Made by a program: the position numbers and the translations under genes. DNA of 32,000 bases from Candidatus Saccharimonadota bacterium (GTDB lineage: Bacteria; Patescibacteriota; Gracilibacteria; UBA4473), in assembly GCA_963677105.1 (NCBI GenBank), contig OY781871.1:690001-722000 (forward strand), written 5' to 3'. Numbering within the stretch: position 1 is the first letter of the stretch; each line of letters opens with the position of its first letter. This document shows, piece after piece, positions 3,591 to 31,371 of this stretch. Under the pieces are notes generated by a model. The model was given only the letters and a program-made list of their open reading frames with translations, had not been told where the DNA came from and made no database searches.

Positions 3591-5000
3591 TTGAAAATTT
3601 ACAATCTTCATGGCAGACTCGACGTAATGCAAAACAGTTGGAGCTCATTTGTTTTTGAAAATTGGGAGTGGAACGCAGAAAAGAAGAATCTTTCATTGCG
3701 TTATTCTTTTGATGGAGAAATTCAATTTGAAGAAAATTGGTGGTTTGATTTTGAAATCACAGATCAGATAGATAAGAATGCTTTAGAAAAAGCATTTCAA
3801 GGATTGTGGCTTGCAGCAGGAGTTTCGTATTTCAAAGCAGCTCTTCCGAAAACGATCCGTTTTCGGGAAAGTACAGAGAACAAATTTCAAAGTACAAAGG
3901 GCAAAGAACAAATAGTAAATAACAAACTACAAAGTGCAAATATTTCTGAGTCACAAGCTGCATTTTTTGAAAAAGTGTGGATGAATGGATTGGGGGAGTT
4001 TTTCTTTCAGAACAGAATTGATCCAACGGGAAAAGTTCAGTTTTTGGCAGATAAAACTACAAACTACACACTACAAATTACAAATAGGGAATTCAAACTT
4101 GAGGGTGCATTACTTCCGATTGGTGGAGGAAAAGATTCGCTTGTTTCTGCAATTTTGCTTCGTGCTGGAAATATCGATTTCGAAACGTGGACCGTTGGAG
4201 ATTCAGAAGTGCAATCAGGTTGTTGTACTGCATTATCTGTTCCACGAGCGAAAGTTCGTCGAAAGATTTGTCCAAATCTTCTTCGACTCAATAAAGAAGG
4301 AGCACTCAATGGACATATTCCAATTTCTTCGATTCTTGCATTTGCAGGAGTTGCGTCTGCGTTACTTCGTGGAAAAAAATATGTCATTCTTTCCAATGAA
4401 TCTTCTGCTTCGGAGCCAAACACTGAGTGGGAAGGATTAGAAATAAATCATCAATGGTCGAAGTCGTTGGAATTTGAACAAGAATTTCAAAAATACGTAA
4501 TAGAAAACATCTCATCAGAAGTGAAATACTTTTCATTGCTTCGTCCTTTATCAGAGCTTCATATAGCAGAAATTTTCGCAAAAAAAGGCTGGGAAGAATT
4601 CGGATCGATTTTCTCAAGTTGTAATCGAAACTTTCATTTAGAAGGTTCAAAAATCTTTTCTCGATGGTGTGGGACGTGTCCAAAATGTGTCTTTGTTTCG
4701 CTCATTTTATCGCCATGGATTTCAGAAAAACAGATGAAAGAATCGTTCGGTTCAGTTCCGTTTGCAGAAACAAAAAATGAAACGCTTGTGAAAGAGTTAC
4801 TCGGATTACAAGGAATAAAACCGTTAGAATGTGTTGGAACTATTGCTGAAGCGAGAGAAGCGGTTATTTTGGGATCAGAGAAACACGAATGTTTACAACA
4901 ATGGACAAAAAAGTTTTCAAATCCAAACTTTGATCATCGCAAGTGGCATCAACATCAATTGCCATTAGAATTTGAAACAATTTTAAAAAATATCACATGA
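3591..5000 (+). CDS. PP-loop (adenine-nucleotide alpha-hydrolase-like) protein; candidate MurL-like UDP-MurNAc-L-Ala-L-Glu epimerase
   Basis: 469 aa. Has a PP-loop-like LPIGGGKDSLVS motif, a SNESSASEP segment and a C-terminal CGTCPKC motif. ATGA-coupled to the downstream mini-protein and a MurD-type ligase. The start is TTG at 3591; an alternative ATG is at 3627. Carries two in-frame heptamer arrays. The MurL call is context plus memory, not an alignment. Confidence 0.55.
   Translation: MKIYNLHGRLDVMQNSWSSFVFENWEWNAEKKNLSLRYSFDGEIQFEENWWFDFEITDQIDKNALEKAFQGLWLAAGVSYFKAALPKTIRFRESTENKFQSTKGKEQIVNNKLQSANISESQAAFFEKVWMNGLGEFFFQNRIDPTGKVQFLADKTTNYTLQITNREFKLEGALLPIGGGKDSLVSAILLRAGNIDFETWTVGDSEVQSGCCTALSVPRAKVRRKICPNLLRLNKEGALNGHIPISSILAFAGVASALLRGKKYVILSNESSASEPNTEWEGLEINHQWSKSLEFEQEFQKYVIENISSEVKYFSLLRPLSELHIAEIFAKKGWEEFGSIFSSCNRNFHLEGSKIFSRWCGTCPKCVFVSLILSPWISEKQMKESFGSVPFAETKNETLVKELLGLQGIKPLECVGTIAEAREAVILGSEKHECLQQWTKKFSNPNFDHRKWHQHQLPLEFETILKNIT
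3871..3940 (+). repeat. Heptamer array (NNNCAAA) x10 inside a CDS
   Basis: Units are gtacaga gaacaaa tttcaaa gtacaaa gggcaaa gaacaaa tagtaaa taacaaa ctacaaa gtgcaaa. Translated in frame as ENKFQSTKGKEQIVNNKLQSAN. Confidence 0.8.
4057..4092 (+). repeat. Heptamer array x4 plus TAGGGAAT tail inside a CDS
   Basis: Units are ctacaaa ctacaca ctacaaa ttacaaa, then tagggaat. Translated as TTNYTLQITNRE. The tail matches the intergenic copy at 6487. Confidence 0.85.
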
Positions 5001-5248
5001 AAATCGATGATCAAATACAAGATATTATTGAGCGTAATAAACGTGTTGAACAAGATAAGAAATGGGAAACGTCATGGACACGACGAATCATTTTGACGGT
5101 GCTTACATGGATTGCAGCATTTTTATTTCTCCATATTATTAAGGTAGAAAATCCAGCATTTGCTGCACTCGTTCCAGCGGGAGGATTTTTACTTTCAACA
5201 CTCAGTCTTCCTTTTGTACGTAAAATTTGGGAACATTTTCAAAAATGA
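4997..5248 (+). CDS. Small membrane protein (two predicted TM helices), function unknown
   Basis: 83 aa with hydrophobic stretches IILTVLTWIAAFLFLHII and AALVPAGGFLLSTLSL. ATGA overlaps at both ends (4997-5000 and 5245-5248) indicate translational coupling. Confidence 0.6.
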   Translation: MKIDDQIQDIIERNKRVEQDKKWETSWTRRIILTVLTWIAAFLFLHIIKVENPAFAALVPAGGFLLSTLSLPFVRKIWEHFQK

Positions 5249-6456
5249 AATTATCTAATTTATTGGCAGCAAAAAAAATCTCTATTTCCGGATATGGCGT
5301 AGAGGGAAAGGCTGCAGAAAAATTTTGTAAAAAAAACTGTCCAACAGTTCCACGGAAAATCATTGAATCTGTTACTTCTTCAATGAAAGACGATGGAAGT
5401 GTTTGGATTGTGTCGCCTGGAATTCCACGAAAATATTTTTCCAACATTCCAGTAGAAATGGTTACATCGGGGACAGAAATATTTTTTGATTCTCTTTCGG
5501 AATCACAACGATCACATGTGATCGGGATTTCTGGAACGAAGGGAAAATCGACTACCACAAAGTTTTGTACAGAAGCCTTAAATATTGCGGAAAAAAAAGC
5601 AGTTGCTGCAGGAAATTTTGGTGTTCCGTTATTAGAAATATTTGATTCGTTCACAACAGGCGATATTGATTATGTAGTAGCAGAATTGTCGAGTTATCAA
5701 TTGGAAAATTTACAAACAAGTCCTGGAATCGCTATTTTCCTCAATATTTTCTCAGATCATTTAGATCGTCATGGAAGTTTTTCCGAATACGAAAAAGCCA
5801 AATCGAATCTCTGGGTTCATCAAAAATCGTCAGATAAATTATTCCTTCCAGATGTTTTGAAGAAATCATTTAATACTGTGGCAGAGATGTTTCATACAAA
5901 ATCCTTAAATCCTGACATTTTTCCAGAAGATTCATCGTTTCGAGCGGATCATTGGTGTCAGAATTTCGGAACAATACAAGCGTTGTTTCAGGAACTACAT
6001 ATTTCAAATGAATTTATTGAACAAACAGCGAAACAATTTTCGGGGCTTCCTCATCGATTACAGAAATTTTCAACCGTTAAAAATAGAACATGGTGGGACG
6101 ATTCTATTTGTACAAATCCAGAAGCGGCGATAGCAACTGTGAAATTTTTTGAAACAAAATTAGGAGCACTTATTCTTGGAGGACAAGACCGAGGAATGGA
6201 TTATTCATCTTTATCAAAAGCTATTCCAGCAAACACATTTATAGTGATTCTTGAATCAGAACTTACAGCTCGTCTGAAAAAAGATTTCCCAAAGGCGATA
6301 GTTGTTCCAACTTTCGATGAAGCGGTATCACAAATTCTTGAAAATACAGTTGAAGAAACAAATATAGTTTTGTGTCCTGCTGCACCAAGTTATGACACAT
6401 TTAAAAATTTTAAAGAAAAAGGAAAATTATTTCAGCACGCAGTTGCGCACGCTTAA
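5245..6456 (+). CDS. murD: UDP-N-acetylmuramoyl-L-alanine--glutamate ligase (MurD-type Mur ligase; possibly the L-Glu-adding MurD2 type)
   Basis: N-terminal Rossmann-like ISISGYGVEGKA, P-loop GISGTKGKSTT, ELSSYQLE and NIFSDHLDRHG motifs. I prefer the ATG at 5245 (ATGA overlap) to the track's TTG at 5227. Confidence 0.85.
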   Translation: MKLSNLLAAKKISISGYGVEGKAAEKFCKKNCPTVPRKIIESVTSSMKDDGSVWIVSPGIPRKYFSNIPVEMVTSGTEIFFDSLSESQRSHVIGISGTKGKSTTTKFCTEALNIAEKKAVAAGNFGVPLLEIFDSFTTGDIDYVVAELSSYQLENLQTSPGIAIFLNIFSDHLDRHGSFSEYEKAKSNLWVHQKSSDKLFLPDVLKKSFNTVAEMFHTKSLNPDIFPEDSSFRADHWCQNFGTIQALFQELHISNEFIEQTAKQFSGLPHRLQKFSTVKNRTWWDDSICTNPEAAIATVKFFETKLGALILGGQDRGMDYSSLSKAIPANTFIVILESELTARLKKDFPKAIVVPTFDEAVSQILENTVEETNIVLCPAAPSYDTFKNFKEKGKLFQHAVAHA

Positions 6457-6458
6457 AA

Positions 6459-6494
6459 TATCAAACTACAAACTACAAAGTTCAAATAGGGATT
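6459..6494 (+). repeat. Heptamer array x4 plus TAGGGATT tail
   Basis: Units are tatcaaa ctacaaa ctacaaa gttcaaa, then tagggatt. Starts 3 nt after the murD TAA (6454-6456). Fills the convergent gap to the zinc-ribbon gene. Confidence 0.85.
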
Positions 6495-6500
6495 TTCTTT

Positions 6501-6680: not shown

Positions 6681-6711
6681 CTGTTTTTTTTTACTAGAAA
6701 TTTCTGAAAAA

Positions 6712-9282: not shown

Positions 9283-9601
9283 CGGTGAAAAAGGTACAGG
9301 GAGAATGATTTTTTTTCAACCTATTTTTGAAGTATTTATTATTCTTTTTTTTTCACACAAAAAGAATCAAAAAGCTCGTTGCGGTTGTTCGTTCGTAAAC
9401 AAAAATTTCTTGTTCGCTAAAATGTGCAAACTATAACAAAGGGAGTTGTTTCTACGAGCACGTTTTAATCGCTCTCATCGAAAATTTGTTTTTTACTTCA
9501 CTTACAAATGCAACCACTTGAGAAAGGAAAAATCGGTTAGTGTTTTATGGAAGCTTTATTTACTGGCATTTCTTTGGGAATTCAGGTACAACATTGTTCG
9601 T

Positions 9602-10852
9602 ATGCAGAAATTCTTTTGGCTTTGCCTTTTGTTGCTTATTCCAGGGTTACTGGCAAGGATCTCGCTTGGTGGATCAGGGATTTTGGCAACAGATATACTT
9701 GTTCCTCTTTTTGCGGTGTTATGGATTGGAAAGAAAATTATTTTTCATGAAAAATTTCCACGTTGTGATTGGATGAGTGCAGGAATTGCCTTTGTTTCTG
9801 TGGCAATTGTGACATGGTTAATCGGTGCATGGGATTTAACCATTTCTGCAAAAATTCTTTCAGCGGCTTATTTTATTCGAATATTAACAATGTTAATTAT
9901 TGGATGGAGTGCAGGAGAATATTTTCAAACTCCAAACTACAAGTTACAAACTACAGATATAAGTTTAAAAGATGCTTTTTTTAAGCGTTTCTTTTTGATT
10001 TCTAGTGTGGTGATTGTGCTGGGATTTATTCAATTTATATTTATTCCAGACATTTCTCGATTTTCTACAGAAGGAGGATGGGATCCACACACCGGACGAT
10101 TATTGGGAACATGGTTAGACCCCAATTATTTAGCTGGATTTTTAGGATTTTTACTTCCTATAATTGCTGGAGCGTGGTACAAAAAACGAAATCATTGGCT
10201 CTTTCTGCTTGGTTTATTAGCACTTGTCGCACTGTTTCTTACGTTTTCAAGAAGTGGTTATTTAGCAGCAATGATAGGACTAGGAATGTTCTTTTTTTTA
10301 CGAGATTGGAAAATTATTTTGTTAGCAATATTGATTGCGATTTTGGGACTTGCTTCCAGTGAAAGAGCTCAAAAACGTGTAGGAGAATTAACGGGAACAA
10401 TGGCTTCAATTGTATTGCAAGACACAGCCGAAATTGATCCAACTGCAAAATTACGGATTCAAAATTGGATAAAATCGGTTGATTTATGGAAAAAATATCC
10501 GGTAGCAGGAATTGGATATAATACGTATCGTTGGCGAGCGGCAGAAGAAGGAGTGGTTGATGAAAACTATTTTTCAGCGGGAGGAGCTGATGGAACACAT
10601 TTAACGGTTTTAGTTACAACGGGAATAATCGGATCGTTGGTATATTTATGGTTTTTGAATGTGCTTTTTTGGAAACCAGTTATTCGTTGGTGGAAAACGC
10701 GAGATGATCGTCAATTAGGATTTGCGATGGGACTTTTGTCGTTAATAGTTCATTCATTATTTGTGAATTCACTTTTTTTCCCATTGATTTTCTTGCCAGT
10801 AATCATTATTGCTGGAGTGTTACAATCAAATGATTCTGTACTTTTAAAATGA
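9602..10852 (+). CDS. O-antigen ligase / O-antigen polymerase-like (Wzy_C-type) polytopic membrane protein
   Basis: About 10 hydrophobic segments and an LTFSRSGYLAAMIGL motif typical of the family. I prefer the ATG at 9602 (MQKFFWLCLLLL) to the track's TTG at 9446. Contains an in-frame heptamer array. Confidence 0.7.
   Translation: MQKFFWLCLLLLIPGLLARISLGGSGILATDILVPLFAVLWIGKKIIFHEKFPRCDWMSAGIAFVSVAIVTWLIGAWDLTISAKILSAAYFIRILTMLIIGWSAGEYFQTPNYKLQTTDISLKDAFFKRFFLISSVVIVLGFIQFIFIPDISRFSTEGGWDPHTGRLLGTWLDPNYLAGFLGFLLPIIAGAWYKKRNHWLFLLGLLALVALFLTFSRSGYLAAMIGLGMFFFLRDWKIILLAILIAILGLASSERAQKRVGELTGTMASIVLQDTAEIDPTAKLRIQNWIKSVDLWKKYPVAGIGYNTYRWRAAEEGVVDENYFSAGGADGTHLTVLVTTGIIGSLVYLWFLNVLFWKPVIRWWKTRDDRQLGFAMGLLSLIVHSLFVNSLFFPLIFLPVIIIAGVLQSNDSVLLK
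9923..9957 (+). repeat. Heptamer array x5 inside a CDS
   Basis: Units are tttcaaa ctccaaa ctacaag ttacaaa ctacaga. Translated as FQTPNYKLQTTD, between hydrophobic segments. Confidence 0.75.
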
Positions 10853-12753: not shown

Positions 12754-12774
12754 TAACAAATTTCAAATATTAAA
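12754..12774 (+). repeat. Weak heptamer array x3
   Basis: Units are taacaaa tttcaaa tattaaa. Shares the AAATAACAAAT core with 25901. Confidence 0.4.
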
Positions 12775-14088: not shown

Positions 14089-16110
14089 TTATTTTGGGAA
14101 ATATTCTGTAGAATTTGGCATAACTCCTTGTCCCTCTAGTGAGTCTTCCATAGGAAGTTCATTTGGGTTAATTCGAGTAGTTGCAGTAGGAATAGCTCCT
14201 TGGTTTTCAAGATTATTAGAAGCAACTAATGTCGGATCTTTTTGTTCTACAACAGGAGTTTGATTTTTAAGGGCTTCCATTACAGGTGATTTTTTCTTAA
14301 ATTGGCTCCAGAATTTTTGCCAACGAGATTTTGGTTTTAACATTTTATCTACGTCTTCTTGTGTTAGTTTTGGTAAGAATCCAAGATCCGGAACATCAGA
14401 GCTGTATGTTTTTGTATCTTTTTTCTCAGTACCATTAATGTCAGTAGAGCTTGGAATAACTCCTTGAGCTTCTAGTTCATCTTCAGAGCCTTTAAATTCA
14501 TAATTTGTTTCTCCGCGGTCTTCATCTTTATGACCAGAAGGTTTGTTTTGAGTAAATTCAGCAGGAGCAGCTATTTTAGGTTTTACAACATTAGTGCGAT
14601 CTATTTTTGTTGTTTCAGTGATTCCATCGAGAGCTGTAGAAGTAGGAATCACACCTTGACCTTCTAAGCTGTCAGAGTCATCAGCCTTTTTTGTATCAGC
14701 TTTAGGTGCAGCAGTAGGTTTAATATTTGGAACATCAGTAGGTTTTTTCTGATCTGGAGAAGCTACTTTTTTCTGAGTTTCAGTATCTTTTGTCTCCGCT
14801 CCTCCAAGAGTCGTAGAAGTAGGAATCACACCTTGACCTTCTAAGCTGTCAGAGTCATCAGCCTTTTTTGTATCAGCTTTAGGTGCAGCAGTAGGTTTAA
14901 TATTTGGAACATCAGTAGGTTTTTTCTGATCTGGAGAAGCTACTTTTTTCTGAGTTTCAGTATCTTTTGTCTCCGCTCCTCCAAGAGTCGTAGAAGTAGG
15001 AATCACACCTTGACCTTCTAAGCTGTCAGAGTCATCAGCCTTTTTTGTATCAGCTTTAGGTGCAGCAGTAGGTTTAATATTTGGAACATCAGTAGGTTTT
15101 TTCTGATCTGGAGAAGCTACTTTTTTCTGAGTTTCAGTATCTTTTGTCTCCGCTCCTCCAAGAGTCGTAGAAGTAGGAATCACACCTTGACCTTCTAAGC
15201 TGTCAGAACCAGAAGCTTTATTTACATTTTCTTTTTTCGGATCTTTTGCAGGTTCTTTATTGTCCCAAGCAGGATTAGCATTTTCTTTTTTCGGATCTTT
15301 TGCAGGCTCTTTATTTTCCCAAGCAGGATTAGCATTTTCTTTTTTCGGATCTTTTGCAGGCTCTTTATTTTCCCAAGCAGGATTAGCATTTTCTTTTTTC
15401 GGATCTTTTGCAGGCTCTTTATTTTCCCAAGCAGGATTAGCATTTTCTTTTTTCGGATCTTTTGCAGGTTCTTTATTTTCCCAAGCAGGATTAGCATTTT
15501 CTTTTTTCGGATCTTTTGCAGGTTCTTTATTTTCCCAAGCAGGATTAGCATTTTCTTTTTTCGGATCTTTTCCGGGTTCAGGATTATTCCAAGCACCATT
15601 AGTCTTTTCTTGTGGTTTGTTTTTTCCCACTACAACAGTCTCTGTTCCTTCTGTCCATACATATTGTCCTGGAGAAAGGAAGTTTGCGTATTGCATTGCA
15701 AATTCTTCCCCGTTAATCATTTTTGTCGCAATATCTTGAGGAATTTTGTATTTACTGTTTTTATTCCATTTATCAATTTGTTCTTGTGAAGGACGAGTTC
15801 CTTCCTCGTATCGTACTTTCGCTTTAAAAATACTTGTAATATTTAATTTCTTAGATTCTTTAAATCCTTTTGTAATAGCACCAATTGTGTCACCAGATTG
15901 AACTTCACGAGTTGAAATGTTTCGTTTTGCCATTTCTTTTCCTAATTCAGTTCCCAATAAATTTTGTTCTGTCTGAGACCAAACTAAAACATCTGTAATT
16001 TCTTTTCCTTGTTTAATTTGATTATTTTGAACTTCCGCACCAATAACTTCATTAGTGAAGAAAAGGAATTTAGCATTTTGCTTTGCCGACGCCAATGAAA
16101 GATTTTTCAT
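14089..16110 (-). CDS. Repeat-built Lys/Pro/Glu-rich protein, function unknown
   Basis: 673 aa. About 170 aa of unique N-terminus, with a possible degenerate LysM-like stretch (VQSGDTIGAI...LSPGQYVW). Then 7 x 18-aa repeats (NPAWENKEPAKDPKKENA) and 3.2 x 59-aa repeats. The motif LE[GAN]QG[VA][IM]P recurs 7 times. No obvious signal peptide. Confidence 0.8.
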   Translation of the reverse strand: MKNLSLASAKQNAKFLFFTNEVIGAEVQNNQIKQGKEITDVLVWSQTEQNLLGTELGKEMAKRNISTREVQSGDTIGAITKGFKESKKLNITSIFKAKVRYEEGTRPSQEQIDKWNKNSKYKIPQDIATKMINGEEFAMQYANFLSPGQYVWTEGTETVVVGKNKPQEKTNGAWNNPEPGKDPKKENANPAWENKEPAKDPKKENANPAWENKEPAKDPKKENANPAWENKEPAKDPKKENANPAWENKEPAKDPKKENANPAWENKEPAKDPKKENANPAWDNKEPAKDPKKENVNKASGSDSLEGQGVIPTSTTLGGAETKDTETQKKVASPDQKKPTDVPNIKPTAAPKADTKKADDSDSLEGQGVIPTSTTLGGAETKDTETQKKVASPDQKKPTDVPNIKPTAAPKADTKKADDSDSLEGQGVIPTSTTLGGAETKDTETQKKVASPDQKKPTDVPNIKPTAAPKADTKKADDSDSLEGQGVIPTSTALDGITETTKIDRTNVVKPKIAAPAEFTQNKPSGHKDEDRGETNYEFKGSEDELEAQGVIPSSTDINGTEKKDTKTYSSDVPDLGFLPKLTQEDVDKMLKPKSRWQKFWSQFKKKSPVMEALKNQTPVVEQKDPTLVASNNLENQGAIPTATTRINPNELPMEDSLEGQGVMPNSTEYFPK
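14636..15205. repeat. 177-bp tandem repeat, about 3.2 copies, identical by eye
   Basis: The register marker aggaatcaca recurs at 14644, 14821, 14998 and 15175. Line-by-line comparison of the three full copies shows no differences. Confidence 0.95.
15225..15602. repeat. 54-bp tandem repeat, 7 copies (the last one diverged)
   Basis: The unit starts at 15225, 15279, 15333, 15387, 15441, 15495 and 15549. The only variation is ggctct versus ggttct. It generates spurious repeat ORFs in other frames (15222..15599 and 15260..15739). Confidence 0.95.
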
Positions 16111-16147: not shown

Positions 16148-16178
16148 TGCAAAAAACACAAGCGATTCGCTATCGCTT
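16148..16178 (-). terminator. Intrinsic terminator downstream of miaB
   Basis: AAGCGAT (16160-16166) pairs with ATCGCTT (16172-16178). On the minus strand the hairpin is followed by gtgTTTTTTg. Confidence 0.6.
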
Positions 16179-16182
16179 AAAA

Positions 16183-16203
16183 TATCAAAGATCAAAGATC
16201 AAA
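16183..16203 (+). repeat. Heptamer array x3
   Basis: Units are tatcaaa gatcaaa gatcaaa. The preceding gcttaaaatatcaaa is identical to 6452-6465. It lies between the miaB stop and its terminator hairpin, antisense to miaB. Confidence 0.7.
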
Positions 16204-17548: not shown

Positions 17549-17600
17549 CGGGGAGAGTGTGCCATTTTTCTCACAAAATTCAACAATATAAAAGGTAAAA

Positions 17601-17636
17601 CTACAAACTTCAAATAACAAACTATAAATATGGAAA
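17601..17636 (+). repeat. Heptamer array x4 plus TATGGAAA tail
   Basis: Units are ctacaaa cttcaaa taacaaa ctataaa, then tatggaaa. Lies upstream of miaB, which is on the minus strand. Confidence 0.8.
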
Positions 17637-17647
17637 TTTTATTAAAT

Positions 17648-17672
17648 AAAAAAGACGCCGAAGCGTCTTTTT
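17648..17672. terminator. Bidirectional intrinsic terminator
   Basis: AAAGACGC (17651-17658), loop cgaa, GCGTCTTT (17663-17670), flanked by A- and T-runs. Terminates the minus-strand gene 17695..18174. Confidence 0.8.
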
Positions 17673-22691: not shown

Positions 22692-23114
22692 ATGAAAAAA
22701 ATACACTTGTTTCTTTATACATTTCTTATTTCTGTTCAAAATACTTTTGCTGAAGATTTAGGAGGAATTATTCCTTCAGGACAAGAAGATGATGCAGCAT
22801 TGAAGGCATTAGCAGATCGTGTAGAATTAGGACAAGTAGAAATAAAAGATGTTTTATTTTTTATAGTAAAATTGATTGATTTAGTTTCAGCATTAGCCGG
22901 AACATTGTGTGTGATCATGCTTTTGTATGGAGGATTTCAATACATGATGAGTGGATTAAATGATGACAAAGAGTCAGCGAAAAAAACATTGCGTTACGCT
23001 ATTACAGGATTGATTGTTACTTTTTTAGCATACCTTATTATTAATCTTATTTTTGCTCAGTTTACTGGTCAGGGAATGTCTTGGGATACAGCATGGAAGA
23101 CTCAGTCCATGTAA
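22692..23114 (+). CDS. TrbC/VirB2-like 'T4SS pilin' family small membrane protein
   Basis: 140 aa with a signal peptide and two TM helices. The [42 protein letters not shown] pattern is common in CPR pilin-like proteins (from memory). Confidence 0.65.
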
Positions 23115-23148
23115 TTCAAATTTCAAACTACAAACTACAAACTTCAAA
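23114..23148 (+). repeat. Heptamer array x5
   Basis: Units are attcaaa tttcaaa ctacaaa ctacaaa cttcaaa. Begins on the last base of the TAA stop (23112-23114). Confidence 0.85.
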
Positions 23149-23220: not shown

Positions 23221-23248
23221 TTGACGATTTTCTCAAAAAAAATACACT
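23221..23248 (+). promoter_or_regulatory. Sigma70-type promoter giving a leaderless mRNA
   Basis: TTGACG (23221-23226), 16-nt spacer, TACACT (23243-23248). The ATG at 23256 is 7 nt after the -10 element. Confidence 0.5.
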
Positions 23249-23255
23249 CTTTGCG

Positions 23256-23705
23256 ATGGAAACGATTATTCAAAAGACACTTCGGACATTGCTCGATAAA
23301 TTTGGAGCAGAGTATTTATGTGTGACTGTTGCAGAAGATGCAGGTCATTATCGTGCAACAATAGAAACGGATAATGCTTCTCGGTTAATTGGACGAAGCG
23401 GACAAACATTAAACGCCTTACAGATTTTATTAAAAAATATTCTTTGGACACAAAATGGAGAAAAGGTTTTTGTTACGGTGGATGTTGATGGATATAGGAA
23501 AGAACAAGAAGAAAAAGTATTAGGAAAAGTAAAACACACAATTGAACTTATGAAAGAGAGAAATTTATCAGAAATAAAGTTACATCCAATGTCTCCTTAT
23601 TTTCGACGAGTTGTACATGTATGGATTTCAAATGAATATCCAGAATTAATGACAGAATCAATTGGACAAGGAGAAGGACGTGCAATTAAGGTCCTCTATA
23701 AGTAA
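23256..23705 (+). CDS. KH + R3H domain RNA-binding protein (Jag/KhpB-like, lacking the Jag N-domain)
   Basis: KH GxxG motif LIGRSGQTLNALQ and an R3H-type C-terminus (LHPMSPYFRRVVHVWIS). Confidence 0.8.
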   Translation: METIIQKTLRTLLDKFGAEYLCVTVAEDAGHYRATIETDNASRLIGRSGQTLNALQILLKNILWTQNGEKVFVTVDVDGYRKEQEEKVLGKVKHTIELMKERNLSEIKLHPMSPYFRRVVHVWISNEYPELMTESIGQGEGRAIKVLYK

Positions 23706-23707: not shown

Positions 23708-23743
23708 CTTCAATTTACAAATTACAAATTACAAATTTAGAAT
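23708..23743 (+). repeat. Heptamer array x4 plus TTTAGAAT tail
   Basis: Units are cttcaat ttacaaa ttacaaa ttacaaa, then tttagaat. Starts 3 nt after the TAA stop (23703-23705). Confidence 0.85.
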
Positions 23744-25168: not shown

Positions 25169-25203
25169 TTCCAAATAACAAACTGGAAATACCAAAGTAG
25201 AAA
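25169..25203 (+). repeat. Heptamer array x5 (degenerate)
   Basis: Units are ttccaaa taacaaa ctggaaa taccaaa gtagaaa. Lies between the U32 stop and the terminator hairpin. Confidence 0.65.
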
Positions 25204-25212
25204 ACCGGAAAG

Positions 25213-25238
25213 GCGAAGCGGAAGCTTCGCTTTTTTTT
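25213..25238 (+). terminator. Intrinsic terminator
   Basis: GCGAAGC (25213-25219), loop GGAA, GCTTCGC (25224-25230), then T8. Confidence 0.85.
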
Positions 25239-25249
25239 GTGTATAAAAA

Positions 25250-25800
25250 AAACTCCGTCCAGAGTATCTCTACGAGAATGCAGTATTAAGTGCAACTGAG
25301 AGGACTGAACGGAGTAAGGGGAAACCACCCCCGAACTCTGCCTTGCTGAGGAAATTTTTAAAGACCGCGTTTCCACTCGGTATCCATGATGTAGGAAATA
25401 ACGTTGAAAAGAAATCAAAGAAGTTATAGGCTACGGATAGTAAAAAAAGAAAGAAGAATTTCTAAAGACGAGGTCTTTGGAAATTTTTCAAAATACCACG
25501 AACCGGCTATTGAGAGGCGGCTTCGAGATGGGTCGGAGTCGTCTAAGGATAGTCGAATCGTAATATCTGCCTCTACGCGGTTTCGCGGTGCATCTAAACT
25601 AAGAGGTTAGGCTTAGGAGACGACATCGCAAAGCGGAGAGAACCAAGGAATCAAAAAAGGGTTACTTGAGAATTAATTACTTAATTCTCTCCGGAACTTG
25701 AAGTGTGAAAGATCTGAGAAGGAGGAACACCGGGTAGGAACGTTTCAAAAATAATTGCCCGCTACCCGAATGTTCAGGACATGATATTCACGGAGAGTAA
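25250..25800 (+). ncRNA. Unclassified structured-RNA candidate (one roughly 550-nt RNA, or two RNAs split near 25490)
   Basis: No credible ORF. Hand-counted GC is 55% for 25501-25560 against 27% for 25861-25920. Many complementary segments: 25252-60/25302-15; GGGG 25318-21/CCCC 25328-31; a 13-bp hairpin at 25457-85; 25538-44/25618-24; 25569-74/25602-07; 25635-42/25685-92; 25668-76/25681-89; 25731-37/25762-68; and end-closing 25253-58/25790-95. G-U pairs (T63-G79, G69-T607) fit only the + strand. The boundaries are approximate. Confidence 0.35.
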
Positions 25801-25889
25801 ATTTGTCAAAAAACTCATATTGATCCAAGAAACAAAACATTTTAAAGTATAAAAAATGTATACAAAGAAGGGCCATTTAAAGGGACTTT

Positions 25890-25932
25890 TGTCAAAGTAC
25901 AAATAACAAATTTTAAATAACAAAATTAGAAT
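25890..25932 (+). repeat. Heptamer array x5 plus ATTAGAAT tail
   Basis: Units are tgtcaaa gtacaaa taacaaa ttttaaa taacaaa, then attagaat. Confidence 0.8.
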
Positions 25933-25967
25933 GTTCGTCTTTTAAATGAGGGGAATATTGTAAAAAT

Positions 25968-25995
25968 TTGACGTGATAAGGGAATTTCTTACAAT
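25968..25995 (+). promoter_or_regulatory. Sigma70-type promoter for tRNA-Glu
   Basis: TTGACG (25968-25973), 16-nt spacer, TACAAT (25990-25995). The tRNA starts at 26012. Confidence 0.6.
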
Positions 25996-26011
25996 CATTT
26001 CGTTCTTATTT

Positions 26012-26086
26012 GGCGCCATCGTCTAGTGGTTAGGACTCAGGATTCTCATTCCTGCAACGGGGGTTCGATTCCCCCTGGCGCTACCA
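26012..26086 (+). tRNA. tRNA-Glu (anticodon CUC), CCA encoded
   Basis: Hand-folded cloverleaf. Acceptor GGCGCCA/TGGCGCT, D-arm GTCT-AGTGGTTA-GGAC, anticodon arm CAGGA-TTCTCAT-TCCTG, 4-nt variable loop, T-arm GGGGG-TTCGATT-CCCCC, discriminator A, then CCA. Confidence 0.93.
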
Positions 26087-26207
26087 CGTCAGAATAAGCT
26101 TTGCTTGTTCCGTTTTTTGTTTCACAAAAAAGCTTCACTGCAGCGCTATTCCTCATTTTCCTCGCAAAACATCTTTTATCTTGTCTTTTAGAAATTTTAT
26201 TCAGAGA

Positions 26208-26230
26208 AATGTAGTTTGTAATTTGTTTTT
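26208..26230 (-). repeat. Heptamer array in reverse orientation
   Basis: The plus strand reads aatgtag tttgtaa tttgttt. The reverse complement reads aaacaaa ttacaaa ctacatt. Confidence 0.55.
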
Positions 26231-26405: not shown

Positions 26406-26681
26406 ATGGAAAACGGTAAAAAATTGTTCATTGGAAATCTTCCATACAGTGTAACAAGTGATGATTTGGAAGCAGCTTTTGCAGAGGCAGGAACAGTTAC
26501 TTCTGCACAAATTGTTACAGATCGAGAAACAGGACGTCCTCGTGGATTTGGTTTTGTTGAAATGGAATCAGATGAAATGGCTCAAGCAGCAATTGAAATG
26601 TGGAACGAAAAAGAACTAAAAGGACGAACAATATTTGTGAATGTTGCTCGACCTAAAAATGACGCACCACGTCGTTACTAA
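26406..26681 (+). CDS. RRM-type RNA-binding protein
   Basis: 91 aa. RNP2 KLFIGNL and RNP1 RGFGFVEM. Confidence 0.92.
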   Translation: MENGKKLFIGNLPYSVTSDDLEAAFAEAGTVTSAQIVTDRETGRPRGFGFVEMESDEMAQAAIEMWNEKELKGRTIFVNVARPKNDAPRRY

Positions 26682-26703
26682 ATTTTATTTTTTAAAAATC
26701 CTG

Positions 26704-26735: not shown

Positions 26736-26759
26736 TAGAGGTCTTTTTTTAGCAGGTAA

Positions 26760-26787
26760 TTGACAATTTTAAAAAATTCTCTATAAA
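26760..26787 (+). promoter_or_regulatory. Sigma70-type promoter for typA
   Basis: TTGACA (26760-26765), 16-nt spacer, TATAAA (26782-26787). Confidence 0.6.
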
Positions 26788-26812
26788 ATGAAGGATTATT
26801 TTTCTTTATAAT

Positions 26813-28606
26813 ATGGAAATTCGAAACATTGCAATTATTGCCCATGTGGATCACGGGAAAACAACATTAATGGACGCACTTTTGAAAGAAGGTGGAGCAT
26901 TTACAGAACACGAAGAAGTGGCGACCTGTGTGATGGATTCGAATGATCAAGAGCGAGAACGTGGAATTACTATTTACGCAAAAAATGCGGCGATTGAATA
27001 TAAAGGAACAAAAATTAATTTAGTTGATACGCCAGGTCATGCTGATTTTGGTTCAGAAGTAGAACGAGTTTTGAAAACGGTAGATGTAACAGTTCTTGTT
27101 GTAGATGCGTACGAAGGTCCGATGCCACAAACGAAATTTGTTTTGAAAAAATCTCTCGAACAAGGAAAAAAAGTTCTCGTTGTTATAAACAAAATTGATA
27201 AACCAGCAGCGCGTCCAGAATGGGTTGTTGATCAAGTTTTTGATTTATTTGTAAAACTTGGTGCAACAGATGAGCAATTAGATTTTCCGTATTTATACAC
27301 GGTTGCTCGTGATGGAGTTGCGGTAAAAAATTTAGACGACGAACAGAAAGATATTACGCCGTTGTTAGACTTTTTCCTTGAGCATGTTCCAGAAGCAGAA
27401 CAAAACATAAATGCACCATTTCGTATGCAACCAGCAACGCTTGCGTATGATAATTTTCTCGGACGAATTGCTGTAGGAAGAGTTCATGAAGGAACAATGA
27501 AAGTGAATCAACAAGTTTCAATTTTAACTCCAGAGGGACAACGTCGGTCTGGAAAGATTTCAAAATTATTTACATTTCAAGGTCTTAAAAGAATTGAAGT
27601 TTCACAAGTTTCCGCTGGAGATATCGTTGCTATTGCGGGAATTTCAGATATTTTCGTGGGAGAAACAATTGCTTCTTCAGCGGACGTAGAACCACTTTCA
27701 GCGATTAACGTAGATCCGCCATCATTGGCAATGTATTTTCTTGTAAACAATTCCCCATTTGCTGGACGTGAAGGGAAATTTGTAACGAGTCGTCAGATTC
27801 GAGATCGCTTAGAAAAAGAATTGGAAACAAATGTTGGATTGCATATTGAGTTTGGAGAAAATTCAGATCAAATGAAGGTTCTTGGTCGTGGAGAAATGCA
27901 CTTAGCGGTTTTGATCGAAACAATGCGTCGAGAAGGATTTGAGCTTCAAGTTTCACAACCAGAAGTAGTTTTACGTGAAATTGACGGAGTGGTTCATGAG
28001 CCAATTGAAAACGTAGTTGTAAATGTTCCAGAAGAAATTTCAGGAAAAATTGTAGAACTTCTGTCTCGTCGAAAAGGAGAAATGGTAAATATGGTGACAG
28101 AAAATGGAACCACGACATTAGAATTTACAATTCCTGCACGAGGACTATTAGGAGTTCGTTCAAACTTCATTATTCTCACAAAAGGAGAAGGAACAATGTT
28201 TAGTTCATTTTCACATATGGGACCACATGTTGGACCAATTGAAAAACGACAAGTTGGTTCTTTGATTTCTGGAGAAACGGGAGAAACGACAGCGTATTCT
28301 TTATGGAAATTGCAAGAACGTGGACCAATTTTTATTGATCCAGCCGTAAAAATTTATGAAGGAATGATTATTGGAGAGCACAATCAAGGTTCTGATTTAA
28401 CGGTAAATCCGATTAAAGGAAAACAGCTCACAAATGTTCGTTCTTCTGGAGCAGATGATGCGATTAATCTTGTTCCGCCAATTCCGGTTACTCTCGAAAA
28501 AGCACTTGAATATATTAAAGAAGATGAATATGTGGAGGTTACTCCGTTGAATATTCGTTTACGAAAAAAATTCTTGTCTGAATTAGAACGCAAGAGGAAT
28601 CGATAG
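26813..28606 (+). CDS. typA: Translational GTPase TypA/BipA
   Basis: 597 aa. IAIIAHVDHGKTTL, DTPGHADF, NKID, and a BipA-type C-terminal domain. Confidence 0.95.
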   Translation: MEIRNIAIIAHVDHGKTTLMDALLKEGGAFTEHEEVATCVMDSNDQERERGITIYAKNAAIEYKGTKINLVDTPGHADFGSEVERVLKTVDVTVLVVDAYEGPMPQTKFVLKKSLEQGKKVLVVINKIDKPAARPEWVVDQVFDLFVKLGATDEQLDFPYLYTVARDGVAVKNLDDEQKDITPLLDFFLEHVPEAEQNINAPFRMQPATLAYDNFLGRIAVGRVHEGTMKVNQQVSILTPEGQRRSGKISKLFTFQGLKRIEVSQVSAGDIVAIAGISDIFVGETIASSADVEPLSAINVDPPSLAMYFLVNNSPFAGREGKFVTSRQIRDRLEKELETNVGLHIEFGENSDQMKVLGRGEMHLAVLIETMRREGFELQVSQPEVVLREIDGVVHEPIENVVVNVPEEISGKIVELLSRRKGEMVNMVTENGTTTLEFTIPARGLLGVRSNFIILTKGEGTMFSSFSHMGPHVGPIEKRQVGSLISGETGETTAYSLWKLQERGPIFIDPAVKIYEGMIIGEHNQGSDLTVNPIKGKQLTNVRSSGADDAINLVPPIPVTLEKALEYIKEDEYVEVTPLNIRLRKKFLSELERKRNR

Positions 28607-28658
28607 AGTTTTTTATAAAAAGGAAATTTCTAAATTACTACTTTCCGCTACACTACGC

Positions 28659-29984
28659 GTGATGGATTTTACTTTTTCTCCCGAAGCAGAACGCGCTATT
28701 GCATTAGTCGCAAATCAGAATAAAAACGTTTTCATAACTGGAAAAGCAGGAACCGGAAAATCTACGTTGCTCGAACACATGCGAATGACGGCAGATAAAA
28801 AAATGATTGTTCTCGCTCCGACAGGAGTGGCAGCAATTAATGTTCGAGGGGAAACAATTCATTCTTTTTTCAAACTCAAACCCGGATTTGAGCTCGATGA
28901 AGCAACGAATATGCGAATCGATGATAAGAAACGAAAAATGTATGGCAGCATTAAAACAATTTTAATCGACGAAATTTCAATGGTTCGCGCGGATTTGTTA
29001 GATGCAATTGATGTGTTTTTGCGACGAGCACGAATGAGTGAAGAACCGTTTGGAGGAGTTCAAATGATTTTTTTTGGAGACTTGTTTCAGCTGCCACCAG
29101 TGGTTACAAATGCCGACAAACAGCGGTTTTATTCAGAATATGAATCGCCGTACTTTTTTTCTGCACGAGTATTTCAAGCCAGAAATTTGTTTGCTGAACC
29201 ATTTCGAATCGAACGGATTGAGTTGAACGATATATATCGTCAAACGGATGAAACATTTATTAATATTCTTAATGCTGTTCGAGATAATTCTGTAACAGAG
29301 GAAGACTTAGAAATTCTCAATGCTCGAGTTGATGAAGATTTTCTTCCTACAGAAGATGGATCATGTATTCATTTGATGACAACGAATGCAAATGCGCATC
29401 AAATTAACATGATGAAATTGGAGCAAATATCGAAGCCTGAAATGGAATTCATTGCAACAGCAAAAGGAAAATTAACGAAAAGTTTACATCCGAATGACCC
29501 GATGATTACGGTGAAAGTTGGAGCACAAGTAATGTTTATTAATAATGATTCAAAACGTCGATGGGTAAATGGAACATTGGGCGTTGTTCGCAGTTGTGTC
29601 GATCGATACAACGAAGAAACGGACGAAATGGAAACGATATTAATGGTTCGGATTAATAATGGAGAACTCGTTGAAGTAACAAAGCATACATGGGATATTT
29701 CAAAATATAAATTTCAGAATGGCGCGTTTGTTCGTGAAGAAATTGGCTCATTTAGCCAAATGCCATTAAAGCTTGCATGGGCAATTACTATTCATAAAAG
29801 CCAGGGAAAATCTTTTGATAATGTTGTTATCGATCTTGGTTGGGGAAGTTTTGCTCACGGACAAACATATGTTGCACTTAGTCGATGTACAAGCTTAGAA
29901 GGATTAGTCTTAAAGAAACCACTCAAGCCATCAGACGTAATTGTAGATGAGTGCGTTCGAAAATTTGCAAACGGAGAAGGGTGA
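28659..29984 (+). CDS. Pif1/RecD-like superfamily-1 DNA helicase
   Basis: Walker A GKAGTGKST, APTGVAAINVRGETIHSFF, DEISMV, FFGDLFQLPPV and C-terminal TIHKSQGKSFD...YVALSRC. The start is GTG at 28659 or ATG at 28662. No terminator separates it from typA. Confidence 0.85.
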   Translation: MMDFTFSPEAERAIALVANQNKNVFITGKAGTGKSTLLEHMRMTADKKMIVLAPTGVAAINVRGETIHSFFKLKPGFELDEATNMRIDDKKRKMYGSIKTILIDEISMVRADLLDAIDVFLRRARMSEEPFGGVQMIFFGDLFQLPPVVTNADKQRFYSEYESPYFFSARVFQARNLFAEPFRIERIELNDIYRQTDETFINILNAVRDNSVTEEDLEILNARVDEDFLPTEDGSCIHLMTTNANAHQINMMKLEQISKPEMEFIATAKGKLTKSLHPNDPMITVKVGAQVMFINNDSKRRWVNGTLGVVRSCVDRYNEETDEMETILMVRINNGELVEVTKHTWDISKYKFQNGAFVREEIGSFSQMPLKLAWAITIHKSQGKSFDNVVIDLGWGSFAHGQTYVALSRCTSLEGLVLKKPLKPSDVIVDECVRKFANGEG

Positions 29985-29986
29985 AT

Positions 29987-30050
29987 TTTCAATGTACAAA
30001 GTGCAAATAACAGATAATTAATTTTGTCTTTGTGCTTTGAAGTTTGATAT
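29987..30050. repeat. Inverted pair of heptamer arrays (hairpin-capable)
   Basis: The forward arm is tttcaat gtacaaa gtgcaaa taacaga (29987-30014) and the reverse arm is tttgtct ttgtgct ttgaagt ttgatat (30023-30050). 29997-30007 can pair with 30029-30039 (11 bp including 2 G-U). It starts 3 nt after the TGA stop. Confidence 0.7.
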
Positions 30051-30081
30051 TTAGAGTGAAGCGAATTTACAAATTATGTGT

Positions 30082-30110
30082 TTGATTTTTTATTAACGTT
30101 ATGTTAAAAT
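30082..30110 (+). promoter_or_regulatory. Sigma70-type promoter (extended -10)
   Basis: TTGATT (30082-30087), 17-nt spacer, TGtTAAAAT (30102-30110). The ATG is at 30133. Confidence 0.55.
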
Positions 30111-30132
30111 GCCCTGAAATATAAAAATTTCA

Positions 30133-31341
30133 ATGAAAAAAACAACACTGATTATCCGGCAAATTTGGAGCGCAATAGTTTTAACTTCATTAGTATTAGG
30201 AATAGTGCCAACTGTTCAAGCACAGAATACATCATATTTGAACTTTCAGGGACGACTCTTGATGAGTGCTACAACTCCCGCAGCAAATTATACTTTTAAT
30301 CTTCGATTATCTATTTGGGATGATGAAGATTATGTTGCAGCTACAGATAAAAATGGAGCAGGAGCTTTAGTTGGTGCGGCTTGGCAAGAAGTTCAAACTT
30401 TGACGACAGATGCGCAAGGATTCTTCATTGCGAAAGTAGGAAGTGAAACAGCATTGCCTGAATTCGATCCTGCAGTTCACAGATATCTTCAAGCAGATGT
30501 AAAAGCAACAACAGCTGAAAACACAAATTATATTATTCTGGATAATATGATGGCGAATGATGCAGTTGATCGTAAATCAATACTTGATAGCGCATATGCA
30601 CAAAACTCATTATTATTGAACGGACATGATACGGGGACAGACGCTGGAGATATTCCGTTTTTAAATGAAAATGGACAATTAGATCGAGCACTTCTTGATG
30701 CTGGAACATGGTTAGATCCAGTTGCAGATGTTGCTGCACGAGATGCAATTACAGGAATGGTTGATGGATCAGTTGTGTATATTGAGTCAGAAAATAGTTT
30801 ATATGTATACAAAGACAATGCTTGGGCAAAAATGGGATATAATCTTACGTATGATTCAGTAAATGATGAATACGATTTTGGTGGAAGTAAACTTTCAAAT
30901 ATTGCTGGACCAGAAGATGCAGATGACGCTGCAACAAAAGATTATGTAGATACTCTTTTCGCAGAGGCCGCAGAAGCAGGAGGAAAATACATTGGAGTTA
31001 CAACGATAGATAATTTTACGGGAGCTATTGCCGGAGGATATGTTGGAGGAGACACAGCTTGTAGGGTAGATTACCCAGGAAGTCATGTTTGTCGAACAGA
31101 TGAAATTTTGGCAGCTATTAGTACAAAAGATATTAGTACGCTCTTTACGTATACAGATCTTGCAGGAGCATGGATATTAGAGGGAGCTCCAGGATATACC
31201 GCACCAGCAAATGACTGTAATGGTTTGACTGATGGAACAGCGAACTATTTAGGAGCATTTTGGCAATTTAATAATACGACAGGAGGATCTGGACAATTAT
31301 CAATTTGTTCACAACAAAAACCCTTAGCGTGTTGTAAATAA
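30133..31341 (+). CDS. Secreted tail-fibre-like protein with a Cys-rich C-terminal domain
   Basis: Signal peptide (LVLGIVPTVQA/QNT). The N-terminal YLNFQGRL...W.EVQ pattern and the LSNIAGPEDADDAATKDYVD motif recall phage tail-fibre or adhesin proteins (from memory). Six Cys in the last roughly 100 aa, ending ACCK. Confidence 0.7.
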   Translation: MKKTTLIIRQIWSAIVLTSLVLGIVPTVQAQNTSYLNFQGRLLMSATTPAANYTFNLRLSIWDDEDYVAATDKNGAGALVGAAWQEVQTLTTDAQGFFIAKVGSETALPEFDPAVHRYLQADVKATTAENTNYIILDNMMANDAVDRKSILDSAYAQNSLLLNGHDTGTDAGDIPFLNENGQLDRALLDAGTWLDPVADVAARDAITGMVDGSVVYIESENSLYVYKDNAWAKMGYNLTYDSVNDEYDFGGSKLSNIAGPEDADDAATKDYVDTLFAEAAEAGGKYIGVTTIDNFTGAIAGGYVGGDTACRVDYPGSHVCRTDEILAAISTKDISTLFTYTDLAGAWILEGAPGYTAPANDCNGLTDGTANYLGAFWQFNNTTGGSGQLSICSQQKPLACCK

Positions 31342-31371
31342 CAAACATCAAAATAAAAAATATACGATAAA

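Follow-up and report, generated by a model that had tools for sequence, protein, structure and literature searches.

Dispersed NNNCAAA heptanucleotide arrays in a patescibacterial genome and their turnover among close relatives

Heptanucleotide repeats in bacteria

In the account that a later paper gives of Mrazek's work, heptamers are the most abundant class of long simple sequence repeats (LSSR) and polymerase slippage is proposed as their origin (Mrazek 2007, via PMC4679880), and a second paper states that LSSR of 5–11 nt had been described mostly in large, GC-rich genomes (PMC4692102). Here we analyse a family of short arrays of the heptamer NNNCAAA that is dispersed through a 32,000-nt stretch of DNA (the window) from a Candidatus Saccharimonadota bacterium (GTDB lineage Patescibacteriota; Gracilibacteria; UBA4473), namely positions 690,001 to 722,000 of contig OY781871.1 in assembly GCA_963677105.1. 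The arrays are contiguous, in-register runs of 7-nt units that go beyond what base composition would give and are in excess in non-coding DNA, which places them among the heptanucleotide LSSR. They share with that class the short head-to-tail 7-nt arrangement, a length beyond chance, a sporadic occurrence across lineages and a mainly intergenic location, and units that are not a multiple of three are tolerated in open reading frames (ORFs) only when the frame is kept. They differ from it in combining a fixed 4-nt core with a free 3-nt part instead of repeating one perfect unit, and in their host, a member of the candidate phyla radiation (CPR) with a genome of ~1 Mb and 36% GC.

Among the described heptamers, TAACTGA repeats occur in marine Beggiatoaceae, cyanobacteria and some Bacteroidetes (MacGregor 2015, PMC4679880), and MacGregor proposed that they are bound by S1, Csp or CsrA (PMC4679880). 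Like these repeats, which come in 2–6 copies, the arrays studied here are dispersed heptamers that lie mostly between genes, though some are in ORFs and some in ribosomal-protein operons. Both kinds have a patchy distribution across phyla, and a mobilisation mechanism has been identified in neither. Unlike TAACTGA repeats, which lie in forward orientation just upstream of start codons, our arrays start at stop codons or lie anywhere in spacers, and they have no set orientation with respect to genes. Membership in the TAACTGA family was rejected, as the unit differs (YTWCAAA) and only one array (31339–31359) lies near a start codon, at 12 nt. The GGGNATC and GGGGAYT repeats of Xanthomonas and Nostoc are heptamers that form G-quadruplexes (Rehm 2015, PMC4692102). 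They resemble the present arrays in being intergenic, in preferring about four units, in lying near stop codons (theirs within 50 nt) and in varying between relatives, but they are G-rich, whereas our arrays have no G-tracts and cannot form a quadruplex. The STRR heptanucleotide repeats of heterocystous cyanobacteria, reportedly described by Mazel et al. in 1990, are said to have the units CCCCAGT, TTGGTCA and CAACAGT; they too are tandem heptanucleotide families scattered through a genome, with other units, in another phylum, and in arrays that are longer and more perfect. Rickettsia palindromic elements are 100–150 bp long, palindromic and conserved in sequence. The likeness lies in their being small selfish repeats that occur between genes and also in frame within conserved genes, where they are translated as surface loops; the difference is that our arrays are ~28-bp direct heptamer repeats.

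A first-pass annotation of the window, made from its letters alone, did not recognise the arrays as a described repeat family. At the level of kind this does not hold, heptamer repeats being documented, but it does hold for the unit: we found no report of YTWCAAA arrays in bacteria, including Peregrinibacteria, and the only literature matches to the exact unit were the ACAAACT satellite of Drosophila virilis, designed unstructured templates and a Lyngbya upstream region with (AATTCAA)3. The same annotation rightly set CRISPR aside, as the 7-mers are contiguous and without spacers.

Other classes were considered and rejected. DNA uptake sequences (DUS/USS) do not fit, given the lack of a fixed 9–12-mer, the strong strand bias and the occurrence in many phyla. 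Three arrays with their tails match a TTnACA-17/18-TAGAAT-like promoter pattern, but promoter-like matches are not enriched over shuffled sequences and several arrays face no gene, so that promoters were set aside as a general account. A terminator reading fails because a single array forms no stem; canonical terminators are found next to some arrays but are not part of them.

The arrays in the window

All 15 sites of the first-pass annotation (15/15) carry period-7 NNNCAAA units at the coordinates it gave. Tandem Repeats Finder (TRF), which is blind to the motif, calls period-7 arrays at 10 of them, and the only other heptamer array that it calls in the window is a two-copy TTTTGCT stretch (2089–2103). 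A detector requiring at least three units, with at most one mismatch in CAAA, returned 10 arrays on the plus strand and 3 on the minus strand, two of the latter three being weak in-ORF matches, compared with ~0.3 arrays per strand in Markov-1/3/5 null sequences. The pattern CAAANNNCAAANNNCAAA has 14 exact matches (13 on the plus strand, 1 on the minus strand) against 0.10 expected from shuffles, and the core AAATAACAAAY, which the first-pass annotation had described as shared by several arrays, has 6 matches, all on the plus strand, against 0.25 expected. Taken together, 10–14 are observed where the null models, Markov-1/3/5 sequences and dinucleotide shuffles, give 0.1–0.4. No array was found in 74 unrelated metagenome loci (1.2 Mb, mean GC 46%), a control set that came from a MiaB-based metagenome scan (~38% identity) in which 6 other loci are close relatives. 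The arrays are non-random, standing ~100-fold over the null models. A chance product or compositional artefact of an AT-rich genome has in our view a negligible probability: the genome is indeed 36% GC and A-rich after stop codons, but the null expectations, the empty 1.2-Mb control and the presence of arrays in genomes of 60–66% GC all argue against it.

The typical array has ~4 units (~28 bp), with the consensus unit YTWCAAA. In TRF-defined arrays, the CAAA part (positions 4–7) carries 1.3–2.0 bits per position and the NNN part (positions 1–3), which prefers Y-T-W, 0.5–1.0 bits. The description of the arrays as nearly devoid of G is accurate for the CAAA strand, which is G-free, and single Gs occur on the other strand. 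Two sites that had been flagged as weak (12754 and 31339) have two exact units each, and the 26208 site is likewise weak (two exact units). Single arrays are unstructured as RNA (minimum free energy (MFE) 0 to −2.7). The related tails in which many arrays were said to end look in part like decayed terminal units. CAAATAGGGAAT/CAAATAGGGATT recurs at 4081, at 6483 and once in a relative (L004); however, relatives without an array at the 6459 site also have ATAGGGAAC, and TAGGGA pre-exists at one array site in relatives. The tail as an element end is only suggestive, since CAAATAGGGAAT (≤2 mismatches) has 7 matches against 4.4 expected.

Ten of the 13–15 arrays lie in the non-coding 12.5% of the window (~87.5% is coding), which is a ~20-fold concentration. 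Among the seven arrays located 3′ of a same-strand gene, five (6459, 23114, 23708, 29987 and 31339) start no more than 3 nt from the stop codon (P=4e-5 under uniform placement in the spacer). These starts at stop codons, the arrays inside ORFs (3871, 4057 and 9923) and the hairpin formed by 29987 and 30023 are points that the first-pass annotation did not contain. The arrays are as follows.

3871–3940, plus strand: degenerate array of ~10 units inside murL (ORF 3627–5000, UDP-MurNAc-L-Ala-L-Glu epimerase, neighbour of a Mur ligase gene), sense, at MurL residues ~83–106, translated as ...STENKFQSTKGKEQIVNNKLQSAN
4057–4092, plus strand: array of 4 units (CTACAAA CTACACA CTACAAA TTACAAA) with tail TAGGGAAT, in murL, sense, residues ~145–157
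6459–6494, plus strand: array of 4 units with tail TAGGGATT, filling a 44-nt convergent spacer between the Mur-ligase stop (6454–6456) and the stop of a Zn-ribbon gene (6501)
9923–9957, plus strand: array of 5 units inside the wzy ORF 9602–10852, sense, translated as FQTPNYKLQTTD, between hydrophobic segments
12754–12774, plus strand: weak array of 3 units (2 exact) in a long spacer 3′ of the DUF4012 gene
16183–16203, plus strand: array of 3 units (TATCAAA GATCAAA GATCAAA) in the spacer that separates two minus-strand genes, to each of which it is antisense; the miaB stop (16214) is 10 nt away, and a terminator hairpin (16159–16179, minus strand) adjoins the array
17601–17628, plus strand: array of 4 units, antisense to both neighbouring minus-strand genes, with the miaB start (17548, minus strand) on one side and the terminator hairpin (17649–17672) of the upstream minus-strand gene on the other; MFE of the plus-strand RNA 0
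23114–23148, plus strand: array of 5 exact units, its start lying within the stop codon of a T4SS-pilin-like gene
23708–23735, plus strand: array of CTTCAAT and three TTACAAA units, starting 2 nt after the stop of a khpB/jag-like gene
25169–25203, plus strand: degenerate 5-unit array flanked by the U32 peptidase stop (25143) and an intrinsic terminator (25207–25236)
25890–25924, plus strand: array of 5 units, left arm of an inverted pair around a tRNA-Glu cassette
26208–26230, minus strand: short array of 2–3 units, right arm of the same pair
29987–30050, plus strand: hairpin of a forward array (29987–30014), an 8-nt loop and a reverse array (30023–30050), 2 nt after the stop of a PIF1-like gene
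31339–31359, plus strand: weak 3-unit array overlapping the stop of a 402-aa gene, with 12 nt between its end and the ATG (31372) of a signal-peptide protein gene

The hairpin at 29987–30050 is imperfect, and its plus-strand RNA folds at −18.6 kcal/mol (z −2.5), compared with −9.2 for the minus strand.

Gain, loss and resizing among relatives

The syntenic relatives comprise L001–L005 (85% amino acid identity in the U32 peptidase), L209 (83% in the same protein), L126, L127 and L128 (72–74% in MurL) and L129–L134. The comparison of orthologous regions, which the first-pass annotation had suggested, finds arrays present, absent or resized at the same sites. Four arrays (16183, 17601, 23114 and 25169) have no counterpart in L001, whose spacers are shorter and in which only promoters and terminators are otherwise recognisable; the L001 spacer orthologous to the 16183 site measures 32 nt and has no array, and the 23114 array is part of a ~100-bp insertion relative to L001 in the pilin–khpB spacer. 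At 6459, 30 nt of array are inserted behind the stop codon and ahead of ATAGGGAAC, which L126 and L128 keep without an array. L126 has the murL and wzy arrays at matching codons. The wzy site has a 4-unit array in L126 and none in L128, where only the seed or proto-unit TATTTTCAAG is found; the second murL site has (CTTCAAA)4 in L126, and in L128 the array is missing and the site has a different, palindrome-bounded insert.

Unit sequences also change between lineages. At the 23708 site, the window has (TTACAAA)3 and L001 has CTACAGA/CTGCAAA/CTTCAAA, and the arrays of L001 and L209 at this site combine other unit variants with an inverted partner arm. Orthologous arrays are homogenised to different unit variants by lineage. 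L126 has a 75-bp two-armed element inserted at exactly the point where, in the window and L128, wzy overlaps the DUF4012 gene. Two-armed copies occur in L001, L209, L126 and a Saccharibacteria locus (L010), but neither a target-site duplication nor an internal sequence in common was found in them, and most arrays are one-armed. The density is 13 arrays per 32 kb in the window and 0–4 per 10–21 kb in relatives.

The relatives also have small repeats of other kinds. The insert in the murL gene of L128 (10428–10490) is bounded twice by the 12-nt palindrome AAGTCCGGACTT and has a protein-level counterpart in P0125, and the GC-rich hairpins AGTCGCCGGAGCAGAGTTRAACTCTGCTCCGGCATT and GAGACCGGTCTC occur twice in L209 (1690–1830 and 2480–2560), around a conserved non-coding block.

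Arrays in other phyla and their orientation

A scan of 185,579 species genomes for YTWCAAAYTWCAAAYTWCAAA returned at least 120 loci of 8 kb each, a set that shows breadth and not frequency because it was selected by the pattern itself. Within Patescibacteria, the matches listed come from Saccharibacteria, Levyibacteriota, Paceibacterota and Falkow-, Berkel-, Davies-, Azam- and Gottesmanbacteria; the other groups among them include Bacteroidota, Planctomycetota, Acidobacteriota, Nitrospirota, Kuenenia, cyanobacteria and more, at GC contents from 31% to 66%. Many of the listed loci hold further arrays with other NNN (TTT, ATT, TAT, TCC, TCA). Among the matches listed, most arrays have 3–5 units, 36 of 188 lie in ORFs, and 26% are accompanied, at a distance of up to 150 nt, by an inverted partner, the CAAA arm coming first in 39 cases and second in 9; in the GC-rich genomes, these forward–spacer–reverse pairs are conspicuous AT-rich hairpins. 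The earlier description of the arrays as direct and not palindromic is therefore right for most of them, but not for one local inverted pair in the window and for the 26% just given. Its separation of the arrays from classical repetitive extragenic palindromic (REP) elements stands: single arrays do not fold into the imperfect 20–40-nt palindrome of REP, BIME and REPIN elements, and the window has no RAYT or transposase gene and only one local inverted pair.

In a Saccharibacteria ribosomal-protein operon (L010), three near-identical two-armed copies are located just upstream of rpsH, rpsQ and rplP, and they fold better on the strand antisense to the genes (z down to −6.8). Rfam 15 gave the L010 elements only sub-threshold chance matches, and over the window it gave only tRNA-Glu above threshold. 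In a Pyrinomonadaceae locus (L019), two perfect forward–spacer–reverse hairpins (3680–3790 and 4053–4140) lie over what may be start codons; signal-peptide-like ORFs would then take their hydrophobic beginning from the reverse arm, an arrangement that suggests a sequestration of the start region.

The plus-strand bias, which had been taken to point to a DNA-level or replication-oriented role, was confirmed (13:1 for exact matches), but simpler causes account for much of it, namely the coding-sense filter described below, the excess of genes on the plus strand and small counts. Solitary intergenic arrays in the clade nevertheless number ~10 on the plus strand and 1 on the minus strand, including two beside minus-strand genes, and this residual bias may be replication-linked or region-specific. 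That the arrays act at the DNA level rather than strictly at the mRNA level agrees with their orientation in spacers elsewhere: among the matches listed, 41 are sense and 39 antisense in co-directional spacers, which means that there is no general link to the direction of transcription, and convergent and divergent spacers hold 23 arrays each. For 157 arrays of other genomes among the matches listed, CAAA lies on the locally G-rich strand by 91:66 (P=0.055), a weak skew that is explainable by the sense arrays in ORFs.

Arrays inside reading frames

The window has three in-ORF arrays (two in murL and one in wzy), all of which are sense, keep the frame and encode circular permutations of LQTTNYK. 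The antisense units TTTGTAG, TTTGAAG, TTTGTAA and TTTGAAA give a stop in every frame within three units and the sense units give none, and because of these stops in all frames the in-ORF arrays must be sense. In other genomes, the in-ORF arrays are 34 sense and 2 antisense among the matches listed. The first MurL site has 3 residues in distant homologues and 3, 11–13, 18 or 25 in members of the clade, the inserts differing in steps of 7 amino acids (21 nt, 3 units), and only a 3-unit change keeps the frame. In the AlphaFold2 model of MurL, which has a mean predicted local distance difference test score (pLDDT) of 88 and a predicted template-modelling score of 0.89, the array-coded segments have a pLDDT below 50 at residues 84–99 and of ~65 at residues 141–160, and the in-ORF arrays are thus predicted to sit in poorly ordered protein loops.

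Two functional readings of the in-ORF arrays were rejected. A coding or peptide function is contradicted by the absence of the segments from distant homologues and by the low confidence of the structure model, and a phase-variation contingency locus by the imperfect and short tracts and by the frame being kept in all relatives.

Because sense arrays contain no stop codons, gene callers can be misled into extending ORFs at the 5′ end. Stop-free sense arrays or A-rich spacers extend mechanical ORF calls in this way at 3591–3626, 9446–9601 and 17549–17620, and in the source annotation, MurL (P0121, 469 aa) seems to have been given an upstream TTG as its start instead of the conserved ATG at 3627.

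Inversion of a tRNA-Glu cassette

One inverted pair of arrays encloses a gene cassette.

25962–26090, plus strand: tRNA-Glu(CTC) cassette with the promoter TTGACG-16-TACAAT and the tRNA at 26012–26086, between inverted arrays

L004 has collinear flanks and retains the two arrays (25890–25924 corresponds to L004 3829–3849 and 26208–26230 to L004 4084–4111), but its cassette is reverse-complemented, so that the tRNA lies on the minus strand. Recombination between the inverted arrays would be the simplest explanation of this flip. Invertons are invertible segments flanked by inverted repeats, and the promoter-bearing tRNA-Glu cassette resembles them in lying between inverted arrays and in occurring in both orientations across two related genomes. 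It differs from them in that no invertase gene is found nearby, the inversion is seen between species and not within a population, and most arrays are unpaired.

Origin and possible roles

The account that we favour, and which we regard as evenly poised between right and wrong, is that the arrays are a heptanucleotide simple sequence repeat family amplified in this lineage. They would be seeded at A-rich proto-units, such as the TAA-A context behind stop codons and the TTTCAAG seed in wzy, and would then grow, shrink and become homogenised through replication slippage and through recombination or template switching between arrays. They would be filtered by the reading frame, would persist where they are harmless and would need no cellular function of their own. 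The plus-strand bias would be largely a by-product of the causes named above, and inverted copies would, as a side effect, form hairpins and be recombinogenic, the tRNA-Glu cassette flip being the case in point.

Several observations weigh against this account. CAAA is far more conserved than NNN, and adjacent units in the window are only slightly more alike than units of different arrays (P=0.096); recent pure slippage does not predict this, which hints that the CAAA phase is under constraint or comes from a specific source. Array lengths cluster at 3–5 units with no geometric decay, and the same-species contigs compared are identical, with no unit-number polymorphism observable. The recurrent flanks (TAAAA head, TAGGGAAT tail) and the discrete 75-bp insertion of L126 give the impression that a ready-made element was copied and pasted. 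Stop-codon abutment could reflect function rather than seeding, and the by-product argument does not fully explain the ~10:1 bias of the solitary intergenic arrays.

Some of these features would suit a binding platform for a single-strand nucleic-acid-binding protein with a ~7-nt footprint, for which cold-shock-domain, S1, KH (KhpA/B) or RRM proteins are candidates. About four protomers or domains would sit on four CAAA phases (UUUG on the other strand), mainly in RNA at the start of a 3′ untranslated region or between cistrons, which they would hold free of structure, protect or adjust in its coupling. The fixed CAAA with its free NNN, the preference for ~4 units, the unstructured RNA of single arrays and the five of seven arrays that abut stops are consistent with such a platform, as are the retention of arrays at orthologous sites despite unit turnover and the presence in the window of an RRM protein gene and a KhpB-like gene, both flanked by arrays. 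Heptanucleotides such as GTCTTTG are ligands of cold-shock domains, and the NNNTTTG strand is similar to this sequence. A precedent is the S1, Csp or CsrA binding proposed for TAACTGA repeats (PMC4679880). We still consider the platform unlikely, in view of the 41:39 orientation relative to transcription (among the matches listed), the 3–4 antisense arrays of the window, the gain and loss of arrays between close relatives and their occurrence inside ORFs. It seems to us quite improbable that the arrays are cis-sites read in 7-nt register by a conserved single-strand nucleic-acid-binding or recombination protein, with the forward–spacer–reverse pairs serving as invertible or processable modules, although the constancy of CAAA, the modal length of four units and the tendency to start at stop codons may be the basis of such a reading. 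If it were true, a widespread and undescribed heptamer-coded regulatory or recombination system would exist in Patescibacteria, Bacteroidota, Planctomycetota, Acidobacteriota and others, with the flipped tRNA-Glu cassette as one example and with a 4:1 preference for the forward–reverse order across phyla (among the matches listed).

The copy-and-paste appearance of some arrays recalls a tiny hairpin-type mobile element, similar to miniature inverted-repeat transposable elements or to REPINs, whose inverted arms, a forward and a reverse array around a short spacer, would be built of heptamers and whose half-elements, remaining once a copy had decayed or been partly deleted, would be the solitary arrays. 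The discrete insertions (the 75-bp two-armed one, seen in L126 only, and the ~100-bp one in the pilin–khpB spacer of the window), the three near-identical two-armed L010 copies and the recurrent head and tail motifs speak for it, together with the inverted partners of 26% of arrays, their 39:9 order (both among the matches listed) and the pairs in GC-rich genomes. We nevertheless find it distinctly unlikely, as there is no partner for 74% of the arrays elsewhere (among the matches listed) and for 11 of 13 in the window, the spacers share no sequence, neither a target-site duplication nor a terminal consensus is definable, and the 7-aa steps fit slippage better; a search of the window and of the relatives' loci found no transposase or RAYT-like gene. 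The strand bias (13:1 on the plus strand, and ~10:1 for solitary intergenic arrays, including the two beside minus-strand genes) would be expected of a replication-oriented DNA signal in which the CAAA strand labels one of the replication strands, for example as primase-initiation clusters (CTA/TTA) on the lagging-strand template or as a polar signal of the KOPS or Chi kind. Some bacterial DnaG primases prefer to initiate at CTA and TTA, the trinucleotides with which the commonest units start, and the plus strand of the window is slightly G-rich beyond the coding effect. What is conserved, however, is CAAA and not the leading trinucleotide, other genomes use TTT, ATT, TAT and TCC units, the preference for the G-rich strand is only 91:66 (among the matches listed) and inverted pairs are common, all of which makes this signal very improbable. 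Rho-utilisation-like sites would consist of G-free, unstructured RNA behind stop codons, and the arrays are indeed G-poor, unstructured and placed to start at stops, several of them coming after a last gene whose next neighbour is convergent or under different control. But they have only 1–2 C per 7 nt and are ~28 nt long, known rut sites being roughly 60–80 nt; several lie between apparently co-transcribed genes (pilin–khpB–U32), several are followed by intrinsic terminators, and the orientation elsewhere is 41:39 (among the matches listed). We hold a role in Rho-dependent termination to be exceedingly improbable.

If the arrays are a lineage-amplified repeat family, CPR/Patescibacteria with their ~1-Mb genomes join the short list of lineages that amplify heptamer repeats, and the window offers a clean view of repeat evolution, from stop-codon seeding and frame filtering to insertion into MurL and Wzy loops and the inversion of a tRNA cassette. 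The presence of NNNCAAA in many phyla raises the question, posed since Mrazek 2007, why a length of seven is favoured in bacteria, and gives a concrete motif for weighing protein binding against polymerase slippage. In practical terms, the arrays can mislead gene callers and inflate the apparent variation in protein length.

Other features of the window

The window has a GC content of 36–37%, and the nearest homologues with a name come from Candidatus Peregrinibacteria and Gracilibacteria. Its genes include rpoA and those of ribosomal proteins L17, S4, S11, S13 and L36, MutS, two EF-G-family GTPases, a U32 peptidase, MiaB, a phosphoglucomutase, a T4SS-pilin-like protein, a DUF4012 protein, a Wzy-like (O-antigen-ligase-like) ligase, an RRM protein (26406–26681) and a PIF1-like helicase. 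The helicase gene (28659–29984) matches Pfam PF05970 (E 4e-33) and has the forward/reverse heptamer hairpin directly 3′ of it.

The region 3627–6456 holds a cluster of murL, an 83-aa membrane ORF and a Mur ligase (MurD2-like) gene, which is kept in L126 and L128. This cluster suggests that the CPR lineage makes the D-Glu of its peptidoglycan by the route in which L-Glu is added and then epimerised.

On the minus strand, a 673-aa ORF (14089–16110) has no Pfam match and contains perfect tandem repeats of 177 nt (3.2 copies, 100% identical) together with repeats of 54 nt (7.2 copies, 95%). The gene at the corresponding position in L001 has an SLH domain, and the ORF probably encodes a fast-evolving, repetitive surface protein.

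A non-coding block of ~590 nt (25245–25835), located between the U32 peptidase gene and tRNA-Glu, is ~88% identical to its counterparts in relatives (L001 11500–11552, L004 ~3110–3700, L209 ~1850–2450), whereas the adjoining proteins are only ~85% identical to theirs. The block, which may be a structured RNA that is undescribed or highly divergent, contains no ORF and has no Rfam or ARAGORN match.

Upstream of the khpB/jag-like gene, a promoter-like TTGACG-16-TACACT (23221–23258) ends 7 nt before the ATG, with no Shine-Dalgarno sequence between them, and it is kept in L001 (9378–9415), which suggests that this gene may be expressed from a leaderless mRNA.

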